Shown: positions 43,512-64,000 of the stretch, piece by piece
Numbering within the stretch: position 1 is the stretch's first letter
Layout of the letters: each line of letters opens with the position of its first letter
Source of the DNA: an uncultured Acidobacteriota bacterium
GTDB taxonomy: Bacteria > Acidobacteriota > Thermoanaerobaculia > Multivoradales > SZUA-115
Assembly (NCBI GenBank): GCA_963805975.1
Contig: CAWDVR010000001.1
Coordinates: forward strand, 576,001 to 640,000
Reading direction: 5' to 3'
Length of the DNA: 64,000 nucleotides
The notes under the pieces: generated by a model
The model's database searches: none
Told to the model about the DNA's origin: nothing
Seen by the model: only the letters and a program-made list of their open reading frames with translations
Position numbers and translations under genes: made by a program

Positions 43512-46500
43512 TCAGCCGTCCGTGGCCTGGGCGCGCAGCAGCGCCGCCAACCGTTCCCGCGCCCCGGCCGGCCCGCCGGGCGGCAGATCCTCCAGCACGG
43601 CCAGCGCCTCGGCGGCGATCGCCTGGCGGCGAGCCCGGTCCGGCAGCGTGGCGCGGCTGACCTCGTCCAGCGAGGCGAGGGCGGTGGCCGCGTCGCCCGC
43701 CTGGGCTCCCAGCCGCGCGCGGAGCAGCAGATCGGCGGCCGAGGCACTGGTGGCGAGGAGAGGGTCGAGCAGCCGCACCGCCTCGCTCGCCGCCACCGGC
43801 TCGCCGCCCGCGAGGCGCCAGGCGATGCGGAGGCGCGTGGCGGCGTTGTAGAGCGGGTGCCGGGGCGGGACCGCGGCGAGGGCCCCTTCGAGCGCCGCGA
43901 GCTCACCTTCTGCGCGCCCGTCGGCCCGCGGGTCGGCGAGGCGCCAGCCGGCGAGAACGGCGCTGGCGGCGGCGTCGCTCTCCGCCCAGGCGCGGAGCTC
44001 CGCCGGCCCGCGTTCCTCGGCCATCGCCGGGCGCAGGGCGAGGAGCAAGGCGGAACGCACCTCCTCCGAGGGCTCGGCCACGAGCGCCGGGTCCGCCGCG
44101 CGGCGGCGCCCTCCCGCGAGGTCCAAGAGGAGAAACGCGGCATGCCGCTCGGACGCCGAGGACAGGGCCGCCGCGGCGCGCAGCGCCCGAGCGGGCTGCC
44201 GCTGGCGGATGAGCCAGCGCACCACGTAGGTGCCGTCCGCGCCCGGCGGCAGGCGCCGGATGGAGTCGAAGGGGGCGATCAGGCGGTCGAGACCCGCGCG
44301 GCCGATGGGGTTCGAAAGGGCGCGGGGCGAGCGCGTCTGCAGCAGGTTCCGGCGGTCGCTGTTGAGCTCCGCACCGGCGGCGAGCTCGCGCGAGCCGGAG
44401 CCGTCGAGCACCCGGGCGAGGAGCAGATCCTCGGCGGTCTCGACCCCCACCAGGCGCCACGCCTCGGCCGAGGCCGCGGCGAGAAACGGCGCGCCGCCCC
44501 GCCCGAGCGGCTGGCCGGAGGCCACGAAGAGCACCGCTCCCCACGGGTACGGCTGGTAGACCTCGACGTGGGGAAAGGCCTCCGAGAGCGTCGCGACGAG
44601 GCTCCGGAGCAGGGGCGCGTCCACGAAGTCGAGCCCGATCCACTGCACGAAGACGCCGCCGGCAGCCAGATGCTCGCGGGCGAGCTCGAAGAACTCGCGG
44701 GTGAAGAGGTGCGAGGAGCCGCTGGTCCAGGGATGCGAGGGCTGCGACACGATGGCGTCGAAGCGCTGGCGCGAGAGGGTGAGCACGCTCCGCACGTCGC
44801 CCACGTGCAGCGACAGCCGCGGGTCGGCGAGCGGGTCGCGGCGCCGCTCCCCGGCGAGATGCCGGTTGGCGGCGATCATCTCGGGCTCGAGCTCCACCAC
44901 GTGGACCTGCTCCACGGACGAGGGCAGATCCTCGATCGAGTGGCCGGCCCCGAGCCCCACCACCAGCAATTTGCCGACGTTCTCCCGCACCGCGCCCGGC
45001 AGCAGCGTCAGCCAGCGGGCCACGGCGTAGCGGCCGGGGCGCGCGCCGGGCGGCTGCACCGCCGACTCCGGAAGCCCATTGCCGGTGAGGCGCCATTCGG
45101 CGCCGTCCTCGTGCAGCAGCACGGTGGCGCCCCGGCCCACGCCGTAGAACATCACTTCACCGAAGCCGGAGGTTGCCGAGGCTTCCGCGTCCACGGGCCC
45201 CTCTTCGACCGCCGCCGGTGTCTCGCGAGGTGGCCGGCGGGCGGTGTCCGCCGCCGGGCCGGCGAGCAGGATGGCGAGGGGCGAGGAGCGCAGCACGTTC
45301 CAGGGCGTGGGAGGCCGCACGAAGGCGAGGGCGGCGAGGCCCACGGCCGCCGCCACCAGGGCCCAGTCGAGCCGCGGGCGCTCGGCGAGAGCGACCACCG
45401 CGGCGAGCGCCAGGCTCACCGTCGCCGCCAGCGCCATGGCGCCGGCAAAGCCCAGGCCGGGCAGCAGCCAGAGGCCGGTCGCGACCGTGCCGGCCACGGC
45501 GCCGATCGTGTTCCAGGCTAGCGTCCGGCCGGCCGCGGTCGAGGCCTGGCGGGCGTCCCCGGCGAGCACGCGGACGGCGAGCGGGAAGGTCGCGCCCAGG
45601 CAGAGGGCGCCGGGCAGGATCAGGAGGCCGCCCAGGATCGCCGTCGCCGCCAGCCGGCTGTGCCCCGCGGCGGCGAGATCCGCGCCCCACGTCGGCACCC
45701 GGTCCGCGGCGGCGAAGGCGGCGAGCGACAGGAGCGCCGCGCCGAGCTGCGCCACCGCCAGCCCGAGGCGGGCTCGCTCGCGGCTCTTCGCCAGGCCGGC
45801 GGCGATCGACGCCCCCAGGGCGATGGCCACCAGGAACGCCGCCAGCATGGTGCCCAGGGCGTAGACGCTGCCGCCCACCAAGTGGGTGAGAAGCCGGCTC
45901 CAGACGATCTCGCAGCCCAGCGCCACCGCGCCAGAGAGCGCGGCCACCGCGAGCGGCCAGAACGGCCCGCGCTCACGGGTCGTGGGCGTGGCCCCGGCGC
46001 TCTCCTCGGGCGCCAGGCGGGGCGAGGCGGCCCCGAGCCCTGCCGCGAGGAGAGCTACGCAGACGTTGAGCCCCACGCCGGCCAGCGTGGCGCGGCCGAG
46101 CCCCAGCGTGGGGAGCAGCAGGAAGGCGGTTCCCACGGCCCCCGCCGCCGCGCCGAGCGTGTTGGCGGCGTAGAGCGTGCCCACGCGGGTGCCGATCGCC
46201 TCCTCGCGCCGTACCGCGTGCCGCACCAGGAGCGGCAAGGTGACTCCCATCAGAGCGGTGGGGACGAGGAGGATCAGGAACGAGGAGGCGAGCTGGAACA
46301 GCGTCGAAACGGCGAGCCCACCGTCCGCGCCGTACACCCCGTCGGTGGCCAGCAGCAGCACCTCGAGGCGGCCTGGCCGCGGCGATGAGCGAGGGCACGG
46401 CGAGCGCCAGCAGGCCGATGGCGAGCTCGATCACGGCATAGGCGAGAAGCGGCCGGGTACTACGGCGCGCCCAGCGCGCACCGGCCGCGGCACCCGCCGC

Positions 46501-46656
46501 GAGCCCGGTCATGTACGCGGCGAGGACCGAGACCAGCGCCAGCTCCGAGGCGCCGAACACGAGCGCCAGCTCTTCCATCCACACCGTCTCGAACACCAGC
46601 GCCGAAGTGCCGGAGAGCACGAAGCAGGCGAGGAGGAGCAGGAAGCGGAGGTCCAT
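43512..46656 (-). CDS. Fused multi-TM / spermidine-synthase-like SAM-binding protein, apparent frameshift near 46370
   Basis: N-terminal SGTSALVFETVW..VLAAYMTGLA in one frame, continuing as PTALMGVTLP and LYAANTLG; SAM-fold motifs VGLGAG, VELEP, GDVR and DAIVSQPSHPW; helical C-terminus. Confidence 0.82.
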
Positions 46657-48482: not shown

Positions 48483-50608
48483 GGCGGTCTCTCCATCATT
48501 TGGCGTGCCTCTGCCATCACCCGCGGATCACGGCAGCGGGCGGCGAGGGTCGAGTACACGGCCTCGGCTTCACCGCGCTCGCCGGCCGCGAGGTGCAGGG
48601 CCAGCAGCGCGAGGTGGGCCTTCCAGTAGTCGGGCGCGAGGTCGAGCGCGCGCCGGAGCTCGCTTCGTGCTTCCTCCTGCCGCGCGGTCTTGAGCAGCAG
48701 GGTGGCGAGGTTCAGGTGCGCGGAAGGGTCGAGCGGCGTATCGGCCGCCAGGCGCCGCAGATGCACCTCGGCCTCGGCAACACGGCCGGCCTCGGCGAGG
48801 AGAACGGCGAGGCGCTGGCGCGCCGCGTTGTGCTTCGGGTCGGCGGCGAGCGCCGCGGCCAGCTCACCCTCCTCGGCGGCGCGGTCGCCCAGCTCCCCGA
48901 GCATGGCGCCGAGCAGGAAGTGGGTCGGTGCCGAGGCCTGGGCCGCCGCCACTTTCTTTGCCAGGGCGAGCGCCCGCTGGTGATCGCCGTTCGAGAACAG
49001 GACCCGCGCCACCTCCATGTACACGTAGTCGTTCTGCGAGCTGATCGGCCCCGCGGCGGCCACCGCGGCGGCCTCCTCCGCCTGGCCGAGGCCGAGCTGC
49101 GCGGTGGCGAGGAGCGCGCGGTAGAAGGCGTTGCCCGGCTCCTCCTCGACCAGCCGCAGCGCCTGCTCGCGGGCCCCCAGGTAGTCCTGCCGCTGGAGGC
49201 TCTGCTTGCACAGGCTCCAGAGGCTCACGCTGGCGATGTGATCCTGCGGCGGATCGCCGTCGTCGCGGAGCTTCTCCTCGATCTGGATCGGCCCTTCGCC
49301 GCCGGCCGAGATGTAGCCCAGCGCGGCCAGCCGCTCGCGGGTCGCGGCATCGCTGTCCGCCAGCGCCTCGGAGGCCGTGGTGCTGGCGTTCTCGGTGACG
49401 AAGGCCTGCAGGCCGTTCTGCAGCCGCTCGGCCTCGGCGCCGGGTGCCAGGTTGGCCAGCTCCTGCGGGTCCTGGCGGACGTCGAAGAGCTCGCGGCGCG
49501 GGCCGTGGATGTACTTGTGCGGCCCCACGAAGAGCGCGCGGAGCTCCCCCCAGCCGTAGGACAGCCGGGGCGACAGGGTCTCGGCGTAGTAGGGCCGCTG
49601 GTCGGCCGGTGCCTGGGCAGGGTTGGCATCCGCGCGCCCGAGCTCGGCGACCAGCGAGCGCCCCTGCAGGTCCGCGGGCACCGGCAGTCCCAGGATCTCG
49701 AGCAGCGTGGGCATGAGGTCGACGGTGCCGACTCGGGACCGCACCCGCCGCCCACCCTTCTCGCCCGGGATGCGGAGGATGAAGGGCACGTGCAGCGTCG
49801 CGTTGTAGAGCAGCATGGAGTGGGTGTCCTCCTCGTGCTCGCCCCGCCCCTCGCCGTGGTCGGCGAGCATGGCGATCACCGTGCGGTCGTAGACGCCCTG
49901 CCGCTTCAGCTCGTCGAGCACCACGCCCAGGGCCTGGTCGGCATAGGCGATCTCCCCCTGGTAGAGGTCGTGCGGGTAGAGGTCGGAGAAGGGTGGCGGC
50001 GGAACGTGCGGCTGGTGCGGGTCCCAGTAGTGGACCCAGGCGAAGAAGCGCCGGCGGGCGTGGTCGCGCAGCCAGGGCAGGATGGCGTCGTTCACCCGCG
50101 CCGCGGGCCGTTCGTCGAAGAAGATGCCGGGACCCTGGCGCCGCCGGCCGCGTTCGTCCTCGGCCGCCACCGTGATGTGATCGTCGTAGAAGTCGAAGCC
50201 CTGGTCGAGGCCCCAGTCGCGGGTCAACGGGAAGGCGCCGATGGCGGCGCCCGTGGCGTAGCCCTCGGCTTTCAGGATCTCGGCCAGGGTGGTGCGCTCC
50301 GCGGGCAGGCGGAAGCGACCGTTGTCCCGCACGCCGTGCGCCAGCGGGTAGAGGCCGGTGAACATGGTGGAGTGCGACGGCGTGGTGATCGGCACCGGCG
50401 TCATGCAGTTCTCGAACAGGGCACCCTCCGCCGCCAGCCGGTCGAGGTTCGGGGTGCGTGCCGAGGTCTTGCCGTAGCAGCCGAGGAAGTCGGCGCGCGT
50501 GGTGTCGAAGGTCACCAACAGGAGATTGAGCTTCGGCTCCCGCCCGCAGGCCGCGAGGGCGAGGAGGGTGAGGATGCCAGGGCGCCGGCCTGCGCGGTGG
50601 ACTGTCAT
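48479..50608 (-). CDS. Sulfatase-like hydrolase/transferase with C-terminal TPRs, lipoprotein
   Basis: LAAC lipobox; LVTFDTTRAD, PITTPSHSTMFTG, HYWDPH, YQGEIAYAD, ADHGE and LAALGY; TPR tail. Confidence 0.88.
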   Translation of the reverse strand: MTVHRAGRRPGILTLLALAACGREPKLNLLLVTFDTTRADFLGCYGKTSARTPNLDRLAAEGALFENCMTPVPITTPSHSTMFTGLYPLAHGVRDNGRFRLPAERTTLAEILKAEGYATGAAIGAFPLTRDWGLDQGFDFYDDHITVAAEDERGRRRQGPGIFFDERPAARVNDAILPWLRDHARRRFFAWVHYWDPHQPHVPPPPFSDLYPHDLYQGEIAYADQALGVVLDELKRQGVYDRTVIAMLADHGEGRGEHEEDTHSMLLYNATLHVPFILRIPGEKGGRRVRSRVGTVDLMPTLLEILGLPVPADLQGRSLVAELGRADANPAQAPADQRPYYAETLSPRLSYGWGELRALFVGPHKYIHGPRRELFDVRQDPQELANLAPGAEAERLQNGLQAFVTENASTTASEALADSDAATRERLAALGYISAGGEGPIQIEEKLRDDGDPPQDHIASVSLWSLCKQSLQRQDYLGAREQALRLVEEEPGNAFYRALLATAQLGLGQAEEAAAVAAAGPISSQNDYVYMEVARVLFSNGDHQRALALAKKVAAAQASAPTHFLLGAMLGELGDRAAEEGELAAALAADPKHNAARQRLAVLLAEAGRVAEAEVHLRRLAADTPLDPSAHLNLATLLLKTARQEEARSELRRALDLAPDYWKAHLALLALHLAAGERGEAEAVYSTLAARCRDPRVMAEARQMMERPP

Positions 50609-53952: not shown

Positions 53953-56754
53953 CTAGTCGGCGCGCAGGGTCTCGACCGGGTCCACCGCCGCGGCGCGTCG
54001 GGCCGGCCGGAAGCCCGCCAGCGTACCCACCGCCAGCACGATCCCGAGCACCGCGAGATAGGCGGCAGGATCGCGGGCGCTGACGCCGTAGAGCAGGCTG
54101 TCGAGCAGCCGGGCGGCGAACCAGGAGACGAGCGTGCCCAGCACGGCGCCGGTGGCGATCAGGCCGAGGCCGTTGCCGAGCACGTGCGCCAGCACCTGTC
54201 CGGGCCGCGCGCCGAGCGCCATGCGAATGCCGATCTCGCGCCGCCGCTGCGCCACGGCGTAGGAGATGACGCTGTACACCCCGGCCGCGGCCAGCAGGAT
54301 CGACACCGCGGTGAAGACCCACAGCAGCCAGGAGTAGGCGAGCCGGAACCACAGCGAGCGGTCCATCCTCTCGGCGAGAGTGCGCACGTCCCCCATCGGC
54401 AGCTCGGGATCGAGCTTCGCCAGCACCTGGCGCGCCGGCGCCACGAGCTGGAGAGGGTCGCGCGAGGTGCGCAGCACGAATCCCAGTGACGGGTAGCCGC
54501 GCTGGCGGTAGGGCACGTGGAGGCTGGGCCTCATCGGCCGGTCGAGGCCGTAGTGCTTGACGTCGCGGGTGATGCCGACCACCGGGATGAAGTCCTCGCC
54601 GGTCGCGCCGTAGCGCAGCCGCTTGCCGAGGGCGCCGCCTTCCGGCCAGAATTGCCGGACGAAGCTCTCGTTGACGATCGCCACCCGGGTGGCGTCGTCG
54701 TGGCCGTCCAGCTCGCTGAAGGTCCGCCCCTCGAGCAGAGTCACCCCCAGCGTCTCGAGGTATCCGGGTGTGGCCGCGACCTCGAGCACCACCGGGTTGG
54801 CCTCGCCCGGCGCCGGCGTCCAGCCGCCCTCGACCACGGCGAACCAGCCGTTGTGCTCACCCACCGGCAGCTTCGACGCCGCGCCGGCAGACTCGACGCC
54901 GGGCAGAGCCCGAAGCTCGGCGAGGAGGCGGTCGTAGAAGGCGATTCGCGCCGCCTCGTCGGCGTACCTCGACGCCGGCGGCCAGACCCGGAACGTCAGG
55001 GCTCCCTCGGGCTCGAAGCCCGGATCGCCCGCCTGCACGTTGCGCAACGACGCCACCAGCACCGAGGACGCGACCAGCAGGAGCACGGTCAGCGCCACCT
55101 CGCCGACGATCAGCGCCGCCAGCGTGTTGCGGTGGCCGCGGGACCACCCGGCGCGGCCTCCCTCCTGCAGGCACTCGCGGGCATCCACCCGCGCCGCCGA
55201 GAGCGCCGGCACCAGGCCGAAGAGGGCGACCGCCGAGCCGGTGACCGCGGCGCAGAAGAGCGCCGCCCGGAGATCGAGGGGGAAGCCGATCCAGGCGGGC
55301 AGCAGGTCGGGGACCAGGCGCAGCAGGCCCTTCAGAGCAAGGCTGCCGAGCCCCACCCCGAGCCCGGCGCCAATCGCCGCCAGGAGCAGGCACTCGATCA
55401 GGAGCTGGCGGACGATCGCGCCCCGCGCCGCGCCCATCGCGGTGCGAATGGCGATCTCCCGGGCGCGCGAGGAGGCGCGCACCATCATCAGCCCGGCGAC
55501 ATTGGCGCAGGCGATCAGCAGCAGGATGGCGACGCCGCCGAGCAGCAGGTAGGTCGCGGTGCGGTAGCTGCCCAACAGGCGTTCGCGCAGCGGCGTCACG
55601 ATGGGCGAGGTGACGACGTCCTGCCGGCCCATGGCCGCGGCGTGGTTGCGGTGGACTCGCCCGAGGTCCGCCGTCGCCTGCTCGATCGACACACCGGGCT
55701 TCAGGCGCCCGATGCCGCTCAGGTTGTAGCTGTCCCCGACCGTCGGGTCGGCCGCGAGCGGCACCCACACCTCGGCCCTCTGCGGATAGACGGCCTCGCG
55801 CGGCAGCACGCCGACCACGGTGTAGGCCTCGCCGTCGATCTTCAGGGCGCGGCCCACGACGCCGGGATCGCCCTGGAACAGCCGGTGCCAGAGGGCGTGG
55901 CCGAGCATCGCGACCCGCGGGCCGTTCGGCCGGTCCTCCTCGGGCAGGAAGCCCCGTCCGACGACGGGGCTCAGCTTCAGCACCTCGAGCATGCGATGCG
56001 TGACCTGCGCCCCTCGCACCCGCAGCGTGCCGCCGTCGTCGGCCGTCCCCCCGGCTGGAGCCCCCTCCGCTGGTGTCAAATTGACGCCGTTGGCGATCGA
56101 GAAGGCCATGGCCTCGAACGAGGTGCTGCCGGCCTCCCAGGCGAGGTAGTCCGCGTTCGAGACGCTGGTGAACTCCAGGTTCCAGCGCGGGGCGGTCTCG
56201 TCCAGGTCCACCAGGCGGTCCAGCCCGGGGAAGGGCCAGGGTCGCAGGAAAAGGCCGTTGTAGATGCTGAACACGGCCGCGGTGCCGCCGATCCCCAGCG
56301 CGAGCATGGTGATCACCATGGCGCTGAAGGCCGGTTTCAGGCGCAGGCCACGGAAAGCCGACCTGAGGTCGTGGCCGAACGAAGCGAAGCCGAGCTTGCC
56401 GAGCATCGTCGATCTCCTCGCGACAGGTCGTAGCCCGAGCACGGGCGGCCGCGGCGAACGGAAGGTGCGCAGCGCACCGAGCGCCTGCGGGAAGCCGGTG
56501 CCCTCGTCCAGCTCGGCGAGCAACTGCCGGCGGGCCTCTCCCTCGGAGCGCCCCTGCGCCAGGAGGTCGGCGAGCTGGCTCTCGAGGTGCTGGGCCAGCT
56601 CGTCCACCACCTCGGCCTCGCGGGCCGCATCGAGCCCGGCGCGCGCCACCAGCTCCCGGACCGCCGCCCTCCAATCGGAACCGGCTCTCCAGTCAGACCC
56701 CGCTTTCCAATCAGACCCCGCTTTCCAATTAGACCCCGCTTTCCAATTAGACAT
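53953..56754 (-). CDS. ADOP-family duplicated MacB/FtsX-type ABC permease
   Basis: EVVDELAQHL prefix, LALGIGGTAAVFS, LLIACANVAGL, REIAIRTAMGA and RRREIGIRMALGA..DPVETLR. Confidence 0.92.
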   Translation of the reverse strand: MSNWKAGSNWKAGSDWKAGSDWRAGSDWRAAVRELVARAGLDAAREAEVVDELAQHLESQLADLLAQGRSEGEARRQLLAELDEGTGFPQALGALRTFRSPRPPVLGLRPVARRSTMLGKLGFASFGHDLRSAFRGLRLKPAFSAMVITMLALGIGGTAAVFSIYNGLFLRPWPFPGLDRLVDLDETAPRWNLEFTSVSNADYLAWEAGSTSFEAMAFSIANGVNLTPAEGAPAGGTADDGGTLRVRGAQVTHRMLEVLKLSPVVGRGFLPEEDRPNGPRVAMLGHALWHRLFQGDPGVVGRALKIDGEAYTVVGVLPREAVYPQRAEVWVPLAADPTVGDSYNLSGIGRLKPGVSIEQATADLGRVHRNHAAAMGRQDVVTSPIVTPLRERLLGSYRTATYLLLGGVAILLLIACANVAGLMMVRASSRAREIAIRTAMGAARGAIVRQLLIECLLLAAIGAGLGVGLGSLALKGLLRLVPDLLPAWIGFPLDLRAALFCAAVTGSAVALFGLVPALSAARVDARECLQEGGRAGWSRGHRNTLAALIVGEVALTVLLLVASSVLVASLRNVQAGDPGFEPEGALTFRVWPPASRYADEAARIAFYDRLLAELRALPGVESAGAASKLPVGEHNGWFAVVEGGWTPAPGEANPVVLEVAATPGYLETLGVTLLEGRTFSELDGHDDATRVAIVNESFVRQFWPEGGALGKRLRYGATGEDFIPVVGITRDVKHYGLDRPMRPSLHVPYRQRGYPSLGFVLRTSRDPLQLVAPARQVLAKLDPELPMGDVRTLAERMDRSLWFRLAYSWLLWVFTAVSILLAAAGVYSVISYAVAQRRREIGIRMALGARPGQVLAHVLGNGLGLIATGAVLGTLVSWFAARLLDSLLYGVSARDPAAYLAVLGIVLAVGTLAGFRPARRAAAVDPVETLRAD
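56661..56752 (-). repeat. In-frame 18-bp tandem repeat (about 5 units) at the permease 5' end
   Basis: On the plus strand AGACCCCGCTTTCCAATY occurs three times (56695-56748), plus two degenerate units. It encodes SNWKAG SNWKAG SDWKAG SDWRAG SDWRAA. Confidence 0.9.
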
Positions 56755-57193: not shown

Positions 57194-58579
57194 GTGACGC
57201 GCCCCACCCATCCCGGTCCGCGCATCGCTCTCCTCAGCCCGAAAGGGCCGCTCTATCGCCACAACGGCGGCATCTTCCGCCAGACGCTGCGCTACATGCC
57301 GTTGACGCTGCCCACCCTGGCGGCCCTGGTGCCCGCGGAGCTGGGGGCCGAGATCGCCTGCTTCGACGAGGGCATCGGCGATGTGCCGCTCGACCTCGAG
57401 GCCGACCTCGTGGGCATGACGGTGATCACCGGCTCGGCCCCCCGCGCCTACGAGCTGGCCGCGCACTTCCGGAAGCGGGGCATGGCGGTGGTGCTGGGGG
57501 GGCCGCACGTGACCCTGGTGCCGGACGACGCGCAGCCGCACGCCGACGCGATCGTGGTGGGCTATGCCGAGGAGGAGTGGCCGCGGCTGCTCCGCGACTT
57601 CGCCGCCGGCGCGCTCCGGCCGCGCTACGTCCAGTCTCCCGATCTCGACCTCGCGCTCTCGCCGCTGCCTGACCGTAGTGTGCTGCCCCGCCGCAAGTAC
57701 CTGACGGCGGACGTCTTCGAAGCCACGCGCGGCTGCCGCCACGCCTGCGACTTCTGCGTGGTGCCGGCGGCCTGGGGGAGGAGGCCGCTGCAAAAGCCGG
57801 TGGAGCACGTGGTCGAGGACATCCGGCGCCGCCGGGCCCGGCGGGCCATCTTCGTGGATCTGAACCTGATCGCCGACAAGGAGTACGCGGCGCGGCTCTT
57901 CACCGCCCTGATCCCCTTGCGGGTGCAGTGGTTCGGCCTCGCCACGACGCTCCTCGCGGAAGACCTTCCGCTCCTCGACCTCGCGGCCCGCAGCGGCTGC
58001 CGGGGGCTCCTGATGGGGCTCGAATCGATCTCGCGCACGAACCTCAGGGGCTCGAAGAAGGGATTCAACGACCCCGAGCGCTTTCCCGAGGTGGTGCACC
58101 GGCTCCATGAGCGCAAGATCGCCCTCCAGGGCTGCTTCGTCTTCGGTCTCGACGAGGACAGACCCGAGGTGTTCCTCGAGACCGCCCGTTTCGCCGTCGC
58201 CGCGCGGATCGACCTGCCGCGTTTCGCCATCGTGACGCCGTTCCCCGGCACCGAGCTCTACCGGCGGCTGGACGGCGAAGGCCGGATCCTCTCCCGCGAC
58301 TGGCAGCGCTACGACGGCCAGCACGCCGTGTTCCAGCCGCTGCACATGACTCCCCGCGAGCTCGAGCTGGGCACCGAGGCCGCCTGGAAGCACGCCTACA
58401 GCGCCGCCGGCATGGTGGCGCGGCTGCGGCACACGGCGGCGCCCTGGAGCGTGGCCCTGCTCTCGAACCTGGGGTACCGCCACTACGCCCACCGCCTGCA
58501 CCGTTTCTACACCTGCGATTGGGGCCTGGCGACGGCCGGCGGATGGTTGCGGCCCGCGCTTCAGGCGAGGGCAGGATGA
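57194..58579 (+). CDS. B12-binding-domain radical SAM protein 1
   Basis: N-terminal PLTLPTLAAL..VVLGGPHVT..VVGYAE; TRGCRHACDFC (CxxxCxxC); GLES, FVFGLDED and TPFPGT. Confidence 0.9.
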   Translation: MTRPTHPGPRIALLSPKGPLYRHNGGIFRQTLRYMPLTLPTLAALVPAELGAEIACFDEGIGDVPLDLEADLVGMTVITGSAPRAYELAAHFRKRGMAVVLGGPHVTLVPDDAQPHADAIVVGYAEEEWPRLLRDFAAGALRPRYVQSPDLDLALSPLPDRSVLPRRKYLTADVFEATRGCRHACDFCVVPAAWGRRPLQKPVEHVVEDIRRRRARRAIFVDLNLIADKEYAARLFTALIPLRVQWFGLATTLLAEDLPLLDLAARSGCRGLLMGLESISRTNLRGSKKGFNDPERFPEVVHRLHERKIALQGCFVFGLDEDRPEVFLETARFAVAARIDLPRFAIVTPFPGTELYRRLDGEGRILSRDWQRYDGQHAVFQPLHMTPRELELGTEAAWKHAYSAAGMVARLRHTAAPWSVALLSNLGYRHYAHRLHRFYTCDWGLATAGGWLRPALQARAG

Positions 58580-59436
58580 GGGTCGACCGCTCGCGCTACT
58601 TCCTGAGCCCCGCGGTGACGCCGTTCGCCTACACCGCGGCCTACGCCGGATGGAACGAGGAGCGCCGGCGGCGCTCGAACCAGCTCACGGCCCTGGCCTT
58701 CAACGAGGGCATCGCGTTCTTCGAGCGGGTGTTCTCGGGCAGCTTGGAGGCGGTGAGAGACCGGCTCGCGGAGAGCGACGAGCTGGGCGCCCCCCTCGAC
58801 CTGTTTCTCGCCGACGAAGCGCGCCACGCCGCCGCCTGGGACGCGCTCAACCGCGCCGCCGAGCCCCGCTACTACGGCGGCAAGGAGATCCGGCCCCTCG
58901 TGCCGGTGTCGCCCCGGCTCGGCCGCGCGATCGTGGGCCTGGCCGGCAGGCCGCGTCTCTTTCCCGTCGTGTTCTGGGTGATGCTGGCCTTGGAGGAGCA
59001 CTCGCTCCACATGACCCGCTGCTGCCTCGGCCGTGGCCGGGAGGCCATCGACCCTGCGTTCCGAGAGGCCTATCGCGAGCACGCGCGGGACGAGGCCCGC
59101 CACGTGCAGGTGGACCTGCGCCTGATCGAGCGCTTCTACGCCCCCCTGCCGTGGCCGCTGCGGTGGATGAACGGGCTGCTGTTGCGCACCCTCCTCCATG
59201 GTGTGCTGCTGGCGCCCGGGCGCCGGGCCCGTGCCGTCCTGGCCCGGCTGGTCGAGGAACAGCCGGAGCTGGCGGTCGAACGGCCGCGGATCGAGCGCGA
59301 GCTGTCGCAGCTCGGCCGGGACCGCGGCTACCTGGCGATGATGTACTCGCCCCGAGCCACGCCGTTGTTCTGGCAGCACCTCGGCCGCTTCCCCGAGCTG
59401 CGCTCCACCCGGCGCCGGCTGGAGGCCGCGGCATGA
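58576..59436 (+). CDS. Ferritin-like diiron oxygenase (AurF/CmlI-like fold)
   Basis: ATGA coupling; E..FFE, DEARH, LEE and EHARDEARH carboxylate/His ligand pattern. Confidence 0.75.
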   Translation: MRVDRSRYFLSPAVTPFAYTAAYAGWNEERRRRSNQLTALAFNEGIAFFERVFSGSLEAVRDRLAESDELGAPLDLFLADEARHAAAWDALNRAAEPRYYGGKEIRPLVPVSPRLGRAIVGLAGRPRLFPVVFWVMLALEEHSLHMTRCCLGRGREAIDPAFREAYREHARDEARHVQVDLRLIERFYAPLPWPLRWMNGLLLRTLLHGVLLAPGRRARAVLARLVEEQPELAVERPRIERELSQLGRDRGYLAMMYSPRATPLFWQHLGRFPELRSTRRRLEAAA

Positions 59437-59446
59437 GAGCCGAGAC

Positions 59447-60772
59447 ATGAGAGTCACGTTTGTGAGGCCGGCCATCGGCGGCGTCCGCTCGTTCGACGCC
59501 ATGGAGCCGCTGGCCTTCGCCCTGCTCGCGGCACGCACGCCGGGCGAGGTGGAGCTGGCGCTCTACGACGAGCGGCTGGAGCGGGTGCCGGTGGAGGAGC
59601 CCACCGACCTCGCGGCGCTCACCATCGAGACCTACACCGCCTGCCGGGCCTATCAGTTGGCCGCCGCCTTCCGCCGCCGGGGCGTGCCGGTGGTGGCCGG
59701 GGGCTACCATCCGACTTTTCTGCCGGAGGAGGCCCTGCGGCACGTGGATGCGGTGGTGGTGGGCGACGGCGAAGAGGTGTGGCCGGAGCTGCTGGCCGAC
59801 GCCCGGGCCGGCAGGCTGGCCCGGCGCTACCAGGGGCAGGGGTTTCCCTCCCTGGCCGGCCTGCGTTTCGACCGCGCGATCTTCGCCGGCAAGCGCTACC
59901 AGCCGGTGGCGCCGGTGCAGTACGGCCGGGGCTGCCGCTACGCCTGCGACTTCTGCTCGATCCACGCCTTCTACGGCGCGAGCGTCCGCCAGCGCCCGGT
60001 GGGCGAGGTGGTGGACGAGATTCGCGCCACCGGCCGGCGCTTCGTGCTGCTGGTGGACGACAACCTGTTCGTCGACGCCGAGAAGGCCCGCGAGCTGTTC
60101 TCGGCCCTCGCGCCGCTCGGCATCTCGTGGGGCTGCCAGGTGTCGATCGACGTCGCCCGCGACCCGGAGCTGCTCGCCGCCATGGCCAGGAGCGGCTGCA
60201 TCGCGGCGCTCATCGGCTTCGAATCGCTCGCCGACGGCAACCTGCGACAGATGAAGAAACGCTGGAACCTGGCCCTCGGCGACTACCCGTCGGTGGTGGC
60301 CCGCTTCGCCGAGCACGGGATCATGATCTACGGCTCGTTCATCTTCGGCTACGACGAGGACGACCGGACCGTCTTCGACCGCACGGTGGAGTTCGCCCTC
60401 GACAGCCGGCTGTTTCTCGCCAACTTCAATCCGCTGGCGCCCACCCCCGCCACCCGGCTCTACGCCCGGCTCGAGGCCGAGGGGCGGCTGCTCTCTCCCA
60501 CCTGGTGGCTGGACCCCGACTATCGCTACGGCGACATCGTCTTCCAGCCGGCGAGGATGTCGCCCGCGGACCTCGCCCGGGGCTGCGACCGTGCCCGCCG
60601 CGGCTTCTACCGCTACGGCTCGCTGTGGAGGCGGGCCTGGGAGCGGCGCAGCAACAGCCGTTCGCTCGGGCGGCTGTCGATCTTCCTGGGCGCCAACTGG
60701 ATGTCGCGCCGGGAGCTGGCGACCAAGATCGGGCGCCGGCTGGGTGGCCAGGACCTTCTGGCGGCGGCCTGA
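59447..60772 (+). CDS. B12-binding-domain radical SAM protein 2
   Basis: MEPLAFALLA..VVAGGYHPT..VGDGE; GRGCRYACDFC; DDN, GFES and FIFGYDED. Confidence 0.9.
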   Translation: MRVTFVRPAIGGVRSFDAMEPLAFALLAARTPGEVELALYDERLERVPVEEPTDLAALTIETYTACRAYQLAAAFRRRGVPVVAGGYHPTFLPEEALRHVDAVVVGDGEEVWPELLADARAGRLARRYQGQGFPSLAGLRFDRAIFAGKRYQPVAPVQYGRGCRYACDFCSIHAFYGASVRQRPVGEVVDEIRATGRRFVLLVDDNLFVDAEKARELFSALAPLGISWGCQVSIDVARDPELLAAMARSGCIAALIGFESLADGNLRQMKKRWNLALGDYPSVVARFAEHGIMIYGSFIFGYDEDDRTVFDRTVEFALDSRLFLANFNPLAPTPATRLYARLEAEGRLLSPTWWLDPDYRYGDIVFQPARMSPADLARGCDRARRGFYRYGSLWRRAWERRSNSRSLGRLSIFLGANWMSRRELATKIGRRLGGQDLLAAA

Positions 60773-60773
60773 G

Positions 60774-61721
60774 ATGAAGACCACGACCACGAAGCCCGGC
60801 CCGCGTGCCGCGTACCCCGTTCCGGCCCGGCTCAACCTGGCCATCGTCGCCGTGCAGATCGCGCTCGCCCTCGGCATCTTCTGGCTCGCCGCGCGCGCCC
60901 ACGCCCCCTGGCACCTGGTGGCGCTCGCCCTCGCCTTCGCCGTGGTGGGCAATTCGATCTATTCCTCGCTGCACGAGGCCGAGCACCGCATCCTCCATCC
61001 CCGCCGGGTAGTGAACGAAGGGCTGGGCGTGGTGCTCGGGCTGTTCTTCCCGGCGCCTTTCCACCTCTTGCGGCAAGGCCATCTCGGCCACCACCTGCGC
61101 AACCGCTCGGACGACGAGGCCTTCGACTTCTACTTCGCGGGCGAGAGCCCGCTGTGGAAGCGGGTGCAGCTCTACGGCACCTTGACCGGCCTCTTCTGGC
61201 TGGTGATCGTGCTCTCGAACCTGGTGGTGCTGGTGCGGCCGCAGGCCCTCACCCGCCGGCGGTTCGAGTTCGACCGCCCGACGGCGGCGCTGGTGGACTC
61301 GTTCAACCCTGCCTGGTGGCCGTGGATCCGGCTGGAGGCGGCGGCGGTGATCGCGCTCCACACCCTCCTGCCCTGGGCCCTGGGAGTCCCGCCGCTCTCC
61401 TACCTCGCGGTGTACTTCGGATTCGGTTTCACCTGGTCGGCGATGCAGTACGTGCACCACTTCGGCACCGAGCGCGACGTGATCGAGGGCACCCGCAACC
61501 TCGCGCTCTGGGCACCGCTCGACCTCGCCTGGCTGAACCACGGCTGGCATCTGACGCACCATCGCCACCCCACGGTGCCGTGGGTGCACCTGCCGCGCCT
61601 GAGCCGGTCCGAGAACCCGCGGCGAGAGCAGATGCTCTGGCACTACCTCAAGATGTGGCGCGGCCCTCGCCGCGGCACCGAGCACGTCGAGAACCGTTAT
61701 GACGGCCGCATCATCCGCTGA
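60774..61721 (+). CDS. Membrane fatty-acid desaturase family protein
   Basis: His boxes HEAEH, HLGHH and HLTHH plus YVHH; TM helices. Confidence 0.87.
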   Translation: MKTTTTKPGPRAAYPVPARLNLAIVAVQIALALGIFWLAARAHAPWHLVALALAFAVVGNSIYSSLHEAEHRILHPRRVVNEGLGVVLGLFFPAPFHLLRQGHLGHHLRNRSDDEAFDFYFAGESPLWKRVQLYGTLTGLFWLVIVLSNLVVLVRPQALTRRRFEFDRPTAALVDSFNPAWWPWIRLEAAAVIALHTLLPWALGVPPLSYLAVYFGFGFTWSAMQYVHHFGTERDVIEGTRNLALWAPLDLAWLNHGWHLTHHRHPTVPWVHLPRLSRSENPRREQMLWHYLKMWRGPRRGTEHVENRYDGRIIR

Positions 61722-62416
61722 CCGCACGGACCTGCCGCTGCCGGCCTTCGCTCTGCCCGCCGGGCGGCGGCTGGCGATGGTGGCGCTCGGCTACATTCCG
61801 TTGCTCCATGCCGGCGCCGTCACCGCCACACTGGTGCTGCCGCTGCTCCGGCCTCTGGCCTCGCTGGGCGTGGGCGCTGGCGCCGCCGACCCTCTTCCTG
61901 CTGCCGCCGCTCGTGGTGCGTCTCGCCCTGCTCGTTCGGCCGCTGGCTGCGGCCTCGATCGAGCTCGGCTCCGGCGCCTTTCTCCTCTGGTGGTTCACCG
62001 CCCAGTGGCAGGCGATCTTCAACCGCCTGGGCTTTCTGGAGGAGCTCCTGCGGCTGGTGCCGGGCCTCTACGGCGCCTGGCTGCGGCTCTGGGGCGCCAG
62101 GGTGGGCCGCCTGGTGTACTTCTCTCCGGAGTGCCGGGTGGTCGACCGGCCGTTCGTCGTCCTCGGCCACCGGGTTCTGCTCTCGATCGGCGCGCGGCTC
62201 TCGCCGCATCTCGTCAGCCGCGGGCCGGATGGCGTGGCGCGGCTGCTCCTGGCGCCGATCGAGATCGGCGACGGCGCGATGATCGGCGGCCACTCCTGGT
62301 TGGGGCCGGGGGCCTTCGTCGCCCCGGGAGAGATGACGCCCGCCGTCTACGCACTGCCCGCGTTCTCCCGCTTCGAGGGCGGCAAGCGCACCCACCATCA
62401 CCCCACCCTGATCTGA
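61699..62416 (+). CDS. Membrane-anchored acyltransferase-like (left-handed beta-helix type) protein, apparent frameshift near 61850
   Basis: TM segments then WLRLWGARVGR..LSPH..IEIGDGAMIGGHSWLGPGAFV. The N-terminus is in the 61699 frame and the remainder in the 61808 frame. Confidence 0.62.
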
Positions 62417-62434
62417 CGGCGAAGCGAATCGACC

Positions 62435-63127
62435 ATGAGCCCCGCCAGCCTTCGCCGCCGTGTTGCCGCCCACCTGCCGCTCAAGCTGGGGCTGACGGGA
62501 GCGTTGCTGGCCGGCGTGTCGCTCGGGTACTTCGGGGTGCAGCGGTTGCGGCTCGTGGCGCCGCTCGCCGTGCCCGGGACCTGGCTCGGCAGTGGGCTCG
62601 ACCGCGCCGTACCCTTCGACCCGAGCTGGACCGGTGTCTACCTCTCGCTCTATCTGCTGACGCCGATCCTGCCCTGGGCCACCGCCGACCGGCACTCGCT
62701 GCTGCGCTATGGCCGCGGCTTCGCCGCGCTGGCAGCGGTGTCGTTTCTCTTCTTCGCGCTGCTGCCGGTGGAGTCGCCGCGGCCGGACACGCTGCCCGAC
62801 CAGGCGCTCTATCGGCTGCTGACCTCCGTCGACGGTACCCTCAACGCCTTTCCCTCTCTCCACGCGAGCCTCGCCATCTACTCCTGGCTGTACGGCCGCC
62901 GGCTGCTGGCCGCGGCCCCGGCCGGCAGCCGGCTCGCCATTCTGGGAGGCCTCGCGCTGTGGATCGCCCTGATCTTCTATTCCACGCTGGCCACCCGCCA
63001 GCACCAGGCCCTGGACCTCGCCGCCGGTGCCCTGCTGGCCTGGGTCTGCGACCGCTGGGCCTGGCGCGGCAGCGCTCGAGCTGCCGGGTCGACATGGATC
63101 GAGCTCACCAGGAGGGAAGCACCATGA
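62435..63127 (+). CDS. PAP2-superfamily membrane phosphatase/phosphotransferase (Aur1/IPC-synthase-like)
   Basis: NAFPSLH and STLATRQHQALDL motifs; about six TM helices. Confidence 0.85.
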   Translation: MSPASLRRRVAAHLPLKLGLTGALLAGVSLGYFGVQRLRLVAPLAVPGTWLGSGLDRAVPFDPSWTGVYLSLYLLTPILPWATADRHSLLRYGRGFAALAAVSFLFFALLPVESPRPDTLPDQALYRLLTSVDGTLNAFPSLHASLAIYSWLYGRRLLAAAPAGSRLAILGGLALWIALIFYSTLATRQHQALDLAAGALLAWVCDRWAWRGSARAAGSTWIELTRREAP

Positions 63128-63741
63128 CCAAGCCGAGCCTCGCCCTCGGTCTCGCTCTCGCCGTCTGGGTGGCGCTGCCACTCGCCGCGGAAGACTCGCC
63201 CCAGGCAGTCTCCTCGCCAGCGGCTGCTTCCGAGGAGGCGGATCACGAGGCCCTGCGCGCGCTCCGCGCCTTGTACGAAGAGGCGGCGGCGAAAGGTGAT
63301 CCTGCCGCGCTCGAGCCCCACCTGGCGCCGGACTTCACCGGCGTGATGATCAAGGGCAACGAGGTAGTGGGCTACGCCGGCCTCGCCGAGTTCTGGCGCG
63401 GCGTCCAGCAGCAGATGGGAGAAGGCGGGCACTACAGCGTGCAAGTGCTGGCGGCCGAGAAGAGCCGGATCTTCGGCGACATCGCCCTGGCGCGGGGCTC
63501 CACCGAGGACCGGATCGTCACCGGTGCCGGCCGTGAGCTCCGCTTCACCAGCCAGTGGACGGCGGTCTGCCAGAAGATCGACGGCCGGTGGAAGCTGCTC
63601 CGAGTCCAGGGCACCCTCGATCCCTTGGACAATCCCTTCCTCGACGGCGTGGTGGCGGCCCGCAGCTACCAGGTGGGCGGACTGGCGCTCCTGGCGGGCC
63701 TGGTCCTGGGCTTCCTCGCCGGGAGAAGGCGCCGGGGCTGA
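63124..63741 (+). CDS. Exported NTF2/DUF4440-like protein with C-terminal TM anchor
   Basis: ATGA coupling; signal peptide; HLAPDFTGV and WTAVCQKIDGRWKLLRV; C-terminal hydrophobic helix followed by RRRR. Confidence 0.75.
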   Translation: MTKPSLALGLALAVWVALPLAAEDSPQAVSSPAAASEEADHEALRALRALYEEAAAKGDPAALEPHLAPDFTGVMIKGNEVVGYAGLAEFWRGVQQQMGEGGHYSVQVLAAEKSRIFGDIALARGSTEDRIVTGAGRELRFTSQWTAVCQKIDGRWKLLRVQGTLDPLDNPFLDGVVAARSYQVGGLALLAGLVLGFLAGRRRRG

Positions 63742-63744
63742 TCC

Positions 63745-64000
63745 ATGCTGGCGGCGAGCCTCTCCGCGTCCGCGGCCCCCGCCCGCCGGCTCTTCGCCGA
63801 ACCGGGCGTGGTGGTGCGCGGCTGGTACGTCGCCGCCCCGTCGCGCGAGCTCGAGGCGGGCCGGGTGAAGGCGGTGGAGCTCGGCTCCCGCCGCCTCGCC
63901 GTGTGGCGCGACCGGCAGGGTCGGCCGCACGCCTGCGACGCCCGCTGCCCGCACCTGGGCGCCGATCTCAGTCAGGGTGAGGTGGTGGAGAAGGGTCTGC
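63745..64000 (+). CDS. Rieske [2Fe-2S] oxygenase, N-terminal part (truncated by the window edge)
   Basis: Translated by hand: GWYVAAPSREL..LAVWRDRQG..DARCPHLGADLSQG. Confidence 0.85.
   Translation, partial: MLAASLSASAAPARRLFAEPGVVVRGWYVAAPSRELEAGRVKAVELGSRRLAVWRDRQGRPHACDARCPHLGADLSQGEVVEKGL

Follow-up and report, generated by a model that had tools for sequence, protein, structure and literature searches.

Several described systems come close to the gene cluster presented here. In the planctomycete Singulisphaera acidiphila, the GH3 enzyme OlsH makes N-acyl ornithine from a fatty acid and ATP (PMC12493201). N-myristoyltransferases (NMTs) use their C-terminal carboxylate as the catalytic base, and a truncation by two residues kept kcat by means of another glutamate (PMC7048800). 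Aur1, an inositol-phosphorylceramide synthase, carries an H-H-D triad common to phosphatases (PMC13133130). Lipid-modifying radical S-adenosylmethionine (SAM) enzymes that depend on cobalamin (B12) have been reviewed, and in the text of that review no word begins with "GH3", "amide" or "Acidobacteri" (PMC13459092); passages on bacterial ceramide synthase taken from PMC11334938 have no bearing on the cluster. The cluster in question is an operon-like run of 12 genes that starts at position 57194 of a 64,000-nucleotide stretch of DNA from an uncultured Acidobacteriota bacterium (the window; GenBank assembly GCA_963805975.1, contig CAWDVR010000001.1, positions 576,001 to 640,000) and extends about 5.5 kb beyond the window end, to window-equivalent position 69472. 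It encodes three paralogous radical SAM proteins (A, B and C), two GNAT acyltransferases (GNAT1 and GNAT2), a GH3 ligase, three oxygen-using iron enzymes (AurF-like, desaturase-like and Rieske), and a beta-helix, a PAP2 and an NTF2/SnoaL protein.

We propose, with confidence that is evenly balanced, that this operon builds, and does not merely tailor, an N-acyl amide envelope lipid, which it then decorates. Building is favored over tailoring alone because the GH3 enzyme and the two GNATs are the most conserved part of the cluster and are amide-bond builders. The original prediction, drawn from the window alone, had seen a pathway to a novel modified membrane lipid. Its membrane side is retained, as several proteins point to membrane lipids (the membrane diiron enzyme, the Aur1-like PAP2, the membrane-anchored NTF2-like protein and the NMT-like acyltransferase), whereas its tailoring-only view gives way to a core of GH3/GNAT amide builders. 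Its failure to match a characterized pathway is reproduced: no curated NCBIfam family exceeded its cut-off, and no description of the cluster was found in the literature searched, which comprised mostly non-subscription main texts. Each enzyme comes from a known superfamily; it is their combination and its product that are undescribed in the sources searched.

Conservation and layered composition

The comparison covers 47 loci, 12 of them picked by GH3, 11 by the AurF-like protein, 4 from plasmid-collection records and 20 by GNAT2. The last set represents 20 of the 22 Planctomycetota genomes, out of 301, with a GNAT2 match. All locus counts are descriptive, since cluster genes guided the choice of loci, which differ in how closely they are related. 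Within the phylum of the source genome, GH3 is matched in 19 of 301 genomes and GNAT1 in 8 of 301, five of those strong (source genome included); six lower-identity GH3 loci (L029-L034) hold no other cluster gene. A single-protein AurF scan of genome contigs found no relative, and an alignment search returned six genome loci and six metagenome loci, one of the latter being a duplicate of L036 that was left uncounted.

Radical SAM A or C is present in 20 of the 47 loci, and both are present in 19 of these; the single locus without the pair (L064) ends at a contig edge. These 20 loci hold GNAT1 in every case, and GNAT2 and GH3 in 19 each. The conserved core is the radical SAM pair, the two GNATs and GH3, with the oxygenases outside it. 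In the 13 loci that carry the pair and were not picked by AurF, the remaining genes are found less regularly: SnoaL in 9, desaturase in 6, PAP2 in 6, the beta-helix gene in 5, Rieske in 4, AurF in 2 and radical SAM B in 2. Since the oxygen-using enzymes are this sparse, they are regarded as optional add-ons. The combination of O2-sensitive and O2-dependent enzymes that had been singled out earlier is real, but it is not central to the system.

Many loci hold GNAT2 and GH3, with or without GNAT1, and no radical SAM gene, and for this reason the design is described as layered: a GNAT2-GH3 base on which GNAT1, the A/C pair and finally the optional oxidases and membrane genes are stacked in turn. 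The loci without radical SAM genes often adjoin a Rieske gene, a fatty-acid hydroxylase, a ferritin-like protein or an MMPL transporter, and their lipid-related neighbors include FA_hydroxylase, MMPL, short-chain dehydrogenase/reductase (SDR) and desaturase genes.

The 12-gene copy of the source genome is the most complete observed. Next to it stand four loci with 11 of the 12 genes in shuffled order: L038, L039 and L045, each without B, which are the AurF-picked loci of two Planctomycetota metagenome-assembled genomes and one metagenome contig, and L061, without Rieske, from one further Planctomycetota genome. Other Acidobacteriota, a Citrobacter plasmid and Acinetobacter carry smaller versions, and the hosts of cluster genes range over Acidobacteriota, Planctomycetota, Citrobacter, Burkholderia and Acinetobacter. 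Conservation thus keeps the genes together and, because their content is retained in other phyla, the cluster is not a chance run of genes. A link to lipids specific to Acidobacteriota, as first suggested, is not supported. True orthologues of radical SAM A (E < 1e-190) occur in 3 of 40 near relatives and in none of the 7 from the same genus or family; the three are order-level relatives and all carry the core. A quick tree of 47 radical SAM rows (built without a clade test and leaving out a partial L049 fragment) likewise places A and C of the source genome among mostly Planctomycetota sequences. Five relatives have single-copy radical SAM paralogues at about 37% identity (L081-L085); no cluster genes lie near these, and they were left uncounted.

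Several of these loci have features of their own. The Citrobacter plasmid NZ_CP134684 (L049:9959-20603) has the order GNAT2-GH3-A-C-GNAT1-B-fourth paralogue-PAP2-SnoaL, with a fifth radical SAM gene on the opposite strand; its 20.6 kb examined gave no AurF, desaturase or Rieske match. This plasmid offers a cultured host for the pathway. L027, L028, L055 and L064 have no match to the three oxygen-using enzymes; they contain additional radical SAMs from a different family, which may be a module that replaces those enzymes without oxygen. Three of the four also have an amidohydrolase-like gene or an M28 peptidase. In several Planctomycetota-type clusters, a recurring gene of 340-370 aa with no Pfam family (L037:8436-9503, L040:5057-6160, L041:8726-9739) lies just upstream of AurF and divergent from it. 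Lastly, genome G629 has a second GH3 gene followed by a B-like radical SAM on a different contig (L079:4555-6687).

The GH3 ligase and the GNAT acyltransferases

The GH3 protein matches PF03321, PF23571 and PF23572, all over cut-off, and its nucleotide-binding motifs T-S-G-S-T-A-G-T-K, L-M-A-T-E and G-L-Y-R-Y-R-L-G-D correspond to those given for this family (PMC12493201). Plant GH3 structures are matched as well. These three domains and three motifs identify it as a predicted acyl-acid amido synthetase. Its identity with OlsH was considered and rejected: it reaches 47.9 and 49.0 of the 620 bits needed, and the partners OlsI and OlsG are absent from the 12 cluster genes.

The most informative of the two acyltransferases is GNAT1. 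Its model (pLDDT 87.8) finds only NMTs among the Foldseek matches listed (best E 7e-14, TM about 0.6), and in a comparison with 48,161 chains yeast NMT ranks first (Z 22.5, rmsd 3.6, 306 residues aligned). The aligned ranges end together, with residue 374 of GNAT1 falling on NMT residue 455. The family ends in E-x-x-x-L-stop; the terminal leucine is kept in 25 of 27 locus relatives and in 144 of the best 150 profile matches, 147 of which have glutamate at position -5, although the profile that ranked these matches includes the C-terminal end and so favors terminal conservation. In the nine other cluster families that were tallied, the last residue varies. There is good support for an enzyme that acylates amines and has a catalytic C-terminus. 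Other tandem GNATs score close to NMT, so a long acyl chain is inferred.

The likeness is one of fold. Sequence kinship with NMT was rejected, as no NMT chain is matched by the GNAT1 profile within E 5 and the protein has no Pfam or NCBIfam match; identity in the structural alignments is 10-14%. Of possible relevance to the Asn246/Thr282 catalytic platform of NMT, T130 and N136 are invariant. The family comprises 2,169 clusters (50% identity) at E <= 1e-30 and 4,499 at E <= 0.001. One member, P0163, has about 135 extra, partly hydrophobic residues preceding GNAT1. GNAT2 is modeled with high confidence (pLDDT 94.5) as a single GNAT fold with an extension, and neither GNAT profile reached a solved sequence at E < 0.01.

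The B12 radical SAM enzymes

The three paralogues are 35-46% identical to each other, B being 46% identical to C and 42% to A. The CxxxCxxC motif is found in all three and in all 42 full-length relatives printed, and the Pfam B12-binding domain scores 38.1, 36.0 and 41.5 bits (cut-off 32.1). The GG motif of this N-terminal Rossmann domain is invariant in 30 of 30 sequences, has an S/T motif downstream of it and accompanies a D-x-N motif like that of TokK. There is no His ligand motif (DxHxxG), as expected for the cobalamin-dependent radical SAM class, and the C-terminal tail resembles DUF4070 weakly. On these grounds A, B and C are predicted to belong to class B of that group. A B12-domain profile search reached no characterized enzyme.

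The residues under the cobalt are a hotspot for the chemistry of these enzymes (PMC9204698, which also describes the B12-domain motifs); they were compared with the motifs quoted there. They are I/G in A (G-x-T-x-I-x-G, without an aromatic residue) and E/Y in B and C (A-x-[ST]-x-E-x-Y), and because of this difference A and C probably do different things. Membership in the TokK/ThnK/CysS type was rejected, since the lower-face Trp (A-x-S-x-Y-x-W) is missing and Val/Ile replaces the Trp that TokK-type enzymes have two residues beyond the Cys motif. HpnJ, HpnR, BchE and ladderane-type NCBIfam models were also rejected, the best giving 87.3 bits against cut-offs of 360-650; the HpnJ model reaches 82.6 of 577.6 bits, and there is no HpnP model among the matches. 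By sequence, the nearest solved relatives are AprD4 and 9ccb, the latter presumably a protein glutamine methylase.

In the quick tree, A stands apart from B and C, the branching within A and within C is similar, and B groups with the Citrobacter plasmid paralogue. Radical SAM C lies directly before GNAT1 in 19 of the 20 loci, and a natural fusion of both (P0051) is 817 aa long. The source genome encodes a B12-dependent MetH over cut-off.

Accessory oxidases and membrane proteins

The AurF-like protein exceeds the Pfam AurF cut-off, with an alignment spanning AurF 207-259, and E44, E50, E81, H84, E140, E141, H169, E173 and H176 are invariant in 17 of 17 aligned sequences. Its H-x3-E-x2-H segment aligns with AurF residues 223-230, where we take H223, E227 and H230 to be diiron ligands, and its sequence carries the complete 3-His/4-carboxylate diiron motif of AurF. 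The desaturase-like protein, with transmembrane segments and three His boxes that are largely invariant in 15 aligned sequences, is a predicted membrane His-box desaturase or hydroxylase. It falls far under the cut-offs of the GntB, CrtR and DesA models, and the weak match to GntB, an arginine hydroxylase, means that it need not act on an acyl chain. SdmA is the nearest model for the Rieske protein and was rejected as its identity, at 75.9 (the part in this genome) and 69.4 (the intact L039 copy) of 600 bits; no reductase for this oxygenase is found in the cluster.

Among the membrane proteins, the beta-helix protein resembles the terminal domain of Pls/PosA (E 3.6e-10 with the intact L039 copy), a domain responsible for amide-bond formation in poly-lysine synthetase. 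For the PAP2 profile, the nearest solved structure is Aur1, at E 8e-6 against E 0.1-0.5 for phosphatases. H143, H190 and D194 are invariant in 11 of 11 sequences, a triad as in Aur1 (H255/H294/D298). The SnoaL protein has a C-terminal hydrophobic segment in 17 of 17 relatives and likely faces the periplasm.

Architecture of the cluster

All eight co-oriented genes recognized in the window have been confirmed on the + strand with their named domains, and retrieval of the downstream sequence brought four more: radical SAM C, GNAT1, GNAT2 and GH3 (Table 1). Radical SAM C raises the earlier count of two such enzymes to three. The source genome (G000) measures 5.36 Mb in 6 contigs and is 96% complete. 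Spacing at all 11 gene junctions ranges from -23 to +18 nt, with 4-nt overlaps at four, and the GC content is 72.4% in the cluster against 70.7% in the whole contig. The earlier statement that no polyketide synthase (PKS), non-ribosomal peptide synthetase (NRPS) or precursor peptide is visible extends to the cluster and its surroundings: no PKS, NRPS, acyl carrier protein (ACP) or conserved small open reading frame (ORF) was found within the gene run or adjoining it. In a promoter scan, the number of sigma-70 sites was 0, where 0.4 would be expected, and that of terminator-like sites 7, against an expected 3.8; no use was made of these sites.

Table 1. The 12 genes in order of position. Plain numbers are window or window-equivalent positions (G000:C1 coordinate minus 576000).
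Gene	Position	Strand	Characteristics
rSAM A (radical SAM A)	57194..58579	+	B12-binding radical SAM, 461 aa, soluble; CxxxCxxC intact; G-x-T-x-I-x-G lower-face motif
AurF/ferritin-like diiron oxidase	58576..59436	+	286 aa; E81-x2-H84, E140/E141, H169-x3-E173-x2-H176 invariant
rSAM B	59447..60772	+	441 aa; rare third paralogue; motif A-x-T-x-E-x-Y
Membrane diiron desaturase/hydroxylase	60774..61721	+	PF00487; 315 aa; about 4 hydrophobic segments
Membrane-anchored left-handed-beta-helix acyltransferase-like	61699..62416	+	Weak Hexapep; frameshifted near 61846
PAP2/lipid phosphotransferase	62435..63127	+	230 aa; H143, H190, D194
NTF2/SnoaL (DUF4440) protein	63124..63741	+	205 aa; signal-like start, C-terminal membrane anchor
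Rieske oxygenase alpha subunit (KshA/SdmA-like)	63745..64717 (end at G000:C1:640717)	+	Frameshifted near 64465
rSAM C	G000:C1 640714-642084	+	456 aa; motif A-x-S-x-E-x-Y
GNAT1	G000:C1 642087-643211	+	374 aa; N-myristoyltransferase-like tandem GNAT; C-terminal E-x-[AG]-x-L-stop
GNAT2	G000:C1 643208-643939	+	243 aa; single GNAT fold; no Pfam or NCBIfam family
GH3 acyl-adenylate/amide ligase	G000:C1 643946-645472	+	508 aa

A divergent PadR/ADOP pair borders the cluster on one side; the ADOP and acidobacterial PadR models both exceed their cut-offs there, in keeping with an acidobacterial host. On the other side lies a convergent gene on the opposite strand, for a metabolite/H+ symporter-like protein of the major facilitator superfamily. 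The adjoining ADOP permease gene starts with 4.6 copies of an 18-nt repeat encoding S-[ND]-W-[KR]-A-G units (window 56670-56752, - strand). Further away, at G000:C1:664404-667740 (L002), is a tandem array of four paralogues; the proteins they encode (247-346 aa) carry signal peptides and have a common start, P-V-I-E-R-G-S-D-V-F, and mostly Cys-rich tails.

Proposed pathway and alternative readings

In the proposed pathway, whose step order and substrates are all conjectural, GH3 would activate a fatty acid or other carboxylate with ATP and join it to an amine, as OlsH does with ornithine. Further acyl groups would come from GNAT2 and the NMT-like GNAT1, the latter taking a long acyl chain off a thioester and passing it to a primary amine, its buried C-terminal carboxylate serving as the base. 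The ancient pair A and C, plus B in this genome, would then modify unactivated carbons by cobalamin-linked radical chemistry, most likely methylation, with ring or C-C bond formation as an alternative, and C would act together with GNAT1. Where oxygen is available, the optional AurF-like, desaturase-like and Rieske enzymes could add hydroxyls, double bonds or oxidized nitrogen. At the membrane, the beta-helix protein may add an acyl group, the Aur1-like PAP2 may move a phospho-headgroup onto a hydroxyl or strip phosphate from one, and the anchored NTF2-like protein may bind the product or pass it on outside. A bolder extension, which we consider unlikely, is that the cluster represents a widespread, so far undescribed class of bacterial membrane lipids, ceramide-like amides made without serine palmitoyltransferase, in which GH3 and the NMT counterpart would be joined by the B12 radical SAM pair or trio and an Aur1-like phospho-headgroup cap.

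Several observations weigh against an amide membrane lipid made in this way. The cluster has no ACP, no amine-donor gene and no fatty-acyl ligase besides GH3, and two of its genes are frameshifted in this assembly. The radical SAMs have neither TokK-type tryptophan, and their closest solved sequence relative, AprD4, is a diol dehydratase in NCBIfam naming, so that methylation is a conjecture; no match to CobS was found in the source genome (96% complete), so that B12 would have to be taken up. MAB_4324 (Z 21.3) and Eis (Z 17.2) come close behind NMT as matches to GNAT1, and the last residue of Eis also aligns. The structural matches of GNAT2 are tied over many GNAT types (Z 11.7-10) and indicate no substrate. 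In addition, PAP2 and the beta-helix gene occur in just 6 and 5 of the 13 non-AurF-picked loci with the radical SAM pair, and the GNAT2-GH3-outer-membrane factor-GNAT1 arrangement of Acinetobacter beside an EmrAB-like pump suggests an exported product.

The same enzymes could indeed make a diffusible, exported acyl-amide, such as a signal, surfactant or antibiotic, in place of a structural membrane lipid. The patchy spread (3 of 40 relatives; GNAT2 in 22 of 301 Planctomycetota genomes), the plasmid copy, the variable accessory genes, the Acinetobacter pump with its outer-membrane factor, the MMPL transporters elsewhere and the presence of acyl-homoserine lactone (AHL) synthases and FeeM among the near-tied structural matches of GNAT2 all agree with this. 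Yet the cluster of the source genome has no exporter, its flanks being the PadR/ADOP pair and the symporter-like gene on the opposite strand, and the Aur1-like PAP2, the membrane desaturase and the anchored NTF2 protein work at membranes, which leaves an exported product rather improbable, though the strongest of the competing readings. Much less credit is given to the idea that the cluster does nothing beyond tailoring a class of lipid already present (hopanoid, ceramide, ornithine lipid or tetraether). The weak family matches to the lipid enzymes HpnJ, ladderane radical SAM, HpnR, SdmA and OlsH would fit, as would ceramide being the substrate of Aur1; against this, all of these matches, such as those given above for HpnJ, SdmA (75.9) and OlsH (47.9), lie far below their cut-offs, the invariant core is a bond-forming GH3/GNAT set, and the hosts are taxonomically scattered and are not known to have any such special lipid in common. 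Equally improbable is a pathway in which GNAT1 lipidates the N-terminus of a peptide or protein like NMT, the radical SAMs methylate that peptide and the iron enzymes oxidize it, in the manner of a ribosomally made, post-translationally modified peptide or of a protein-modification system. The NMT-like fold and C-terminus of GNAT1 and the closeness of 9ccb to the radical SAMs speak for it, but the operon spacing leaves no room for a precursor, the source cluster has no peptidase or peptide exporter, and GH3 and PAP2 would have no obvious role. No conserved precursor was found among 1,064 small ORFs (20-100 aa) near 27 clusters, distant precursors lying outside the search; the comparison gave 11 cross-locus pairs, each within two or three loci and none from the source genome.

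Compatible with any of these readings is the decay of the cluster in this strain, which would then yield nothing or a truncated product. This we judge distinctly unlikely. Two frameshifts within 12.3 kb do suggest it, as does a homology check in which just 3 frameshift-like breaks, that of the Rieske gene among them, appeared over 118 kb of covered genome. However, contigs of a relative about 95-98% identical, from soil run X1, have exactly one base fewer at each site, and the three long ones spanning the stretch have no other gap (3 of 5 listed runs were used, and long contigs bridging both sites came only from X1). A frame-switch scan called 58 events in 900 kb of the source genome, and 14 other high-GC loci, 260 kb in all, gave 6 (46 and 5 with a stricter penalty); it found the Rieske break and missed that at 61846, and thus undercounts. 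Because this rate exceeds that of the other loci, residual assembly indels are probably the likelier cause of both frameshifts. Both genes are intact single ORFs in L039, the Rieske gene also in L038 and L045, and the other ten cluster genes are whole, with their catalytic motifs intact.

Elsewhere in the window, a frame switch near 46373 breaks a long membrane gene (43512-46656, - strand) in two, so that it reads as a pair of ORFs; the second half of this gene is spermidine-synthase-like as labeled by eye from the sequence. An additional frame switch was called near 50602. In the Acinetobacter baumannii record (L047:7150-14829), the reduced GNAT2-GH3-outer-membrane factor-GNAT1 set lies directly after the EmrA/EmrB-like pump.

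Significance and comparison with known systems

The cluster carries no PKS, NRPS or precursor gene that would flag it. The GNAT1 family is large, yet its scanned members have no curated family and no paper in the literature searched. As a defined, cloneable set of genes, for which the 12-gene copy is a good template due to its completeness, it bears on the products of bacterial GH3 enzymes other than OlsH, on the roles of large unassigned clades of B12 radical SAMs, and on whether bacteria possess an NMT-type long-chain N-acyltransferase. If the proposal is true, a methylated or oxidized amide lipid from soil or sediment bacteria could explain unassigned environmental lipid signals.

Like the OlsH/OlsI/OlsG pathway (PMC12493201), the cluster would combine a GH3-formed N-acyl amide with another acyltransferase and with tailoring, all within a single operon; the partners of OlsH are an alpha/beta-hydrolase and an N-methyltransferase, whereas here they are two GNATs, joined by a PAP2, three iron oxidases and three radical SAMs. 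With lipid-modifying B12 radical SAMs (HpnP/HpnR/HpnJ, GrsA/B, Gmm and the ladderane candidates), A, B and C have in common the N-terminal B12 domain, the CxxxCxxC core and the weak DUF4070 tail, but they form a fixed paralogue pair or trio with GH3/GNAT and lie below every curated cut-off. GNAT1 has the tandem GNAT fold of eukaryotic NMT and Eis-type enzymes, its last residue aligns with the catalytic C-terminus of NMT, and C-terminal length and leucine are fixed across the GNAT1 family; unlike NMT, it is bacterial, has low identity to it and belongs to a small-molecule operon. The AurF-like protein has the Pfam family and H-x3-E-x2-H segment of the arylamine oxygenases AurF and CmlI, but its profile matches AurF itself weakly (E 0.14), about as well as MiaE, and no gene supplying aminobenzoate is among the 12. 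PAP2 displays the F-P-S-L-H and H-x3-D motifs and H-H-D triad of Aur1, yet it has 230 aa versus 401, matches only in the C-terminal motifs and has no ceramide pathway gene beside it in the cluster. What this analysis adds is the cluster in its 12-gene form, the layering seen in its co-occurrence, and the likeness of the GNAT1 terminus to NMT and of PAP2 to Aur1. The cluster is a predicted variant of GH3/GNAT amino-lipid synthesis.

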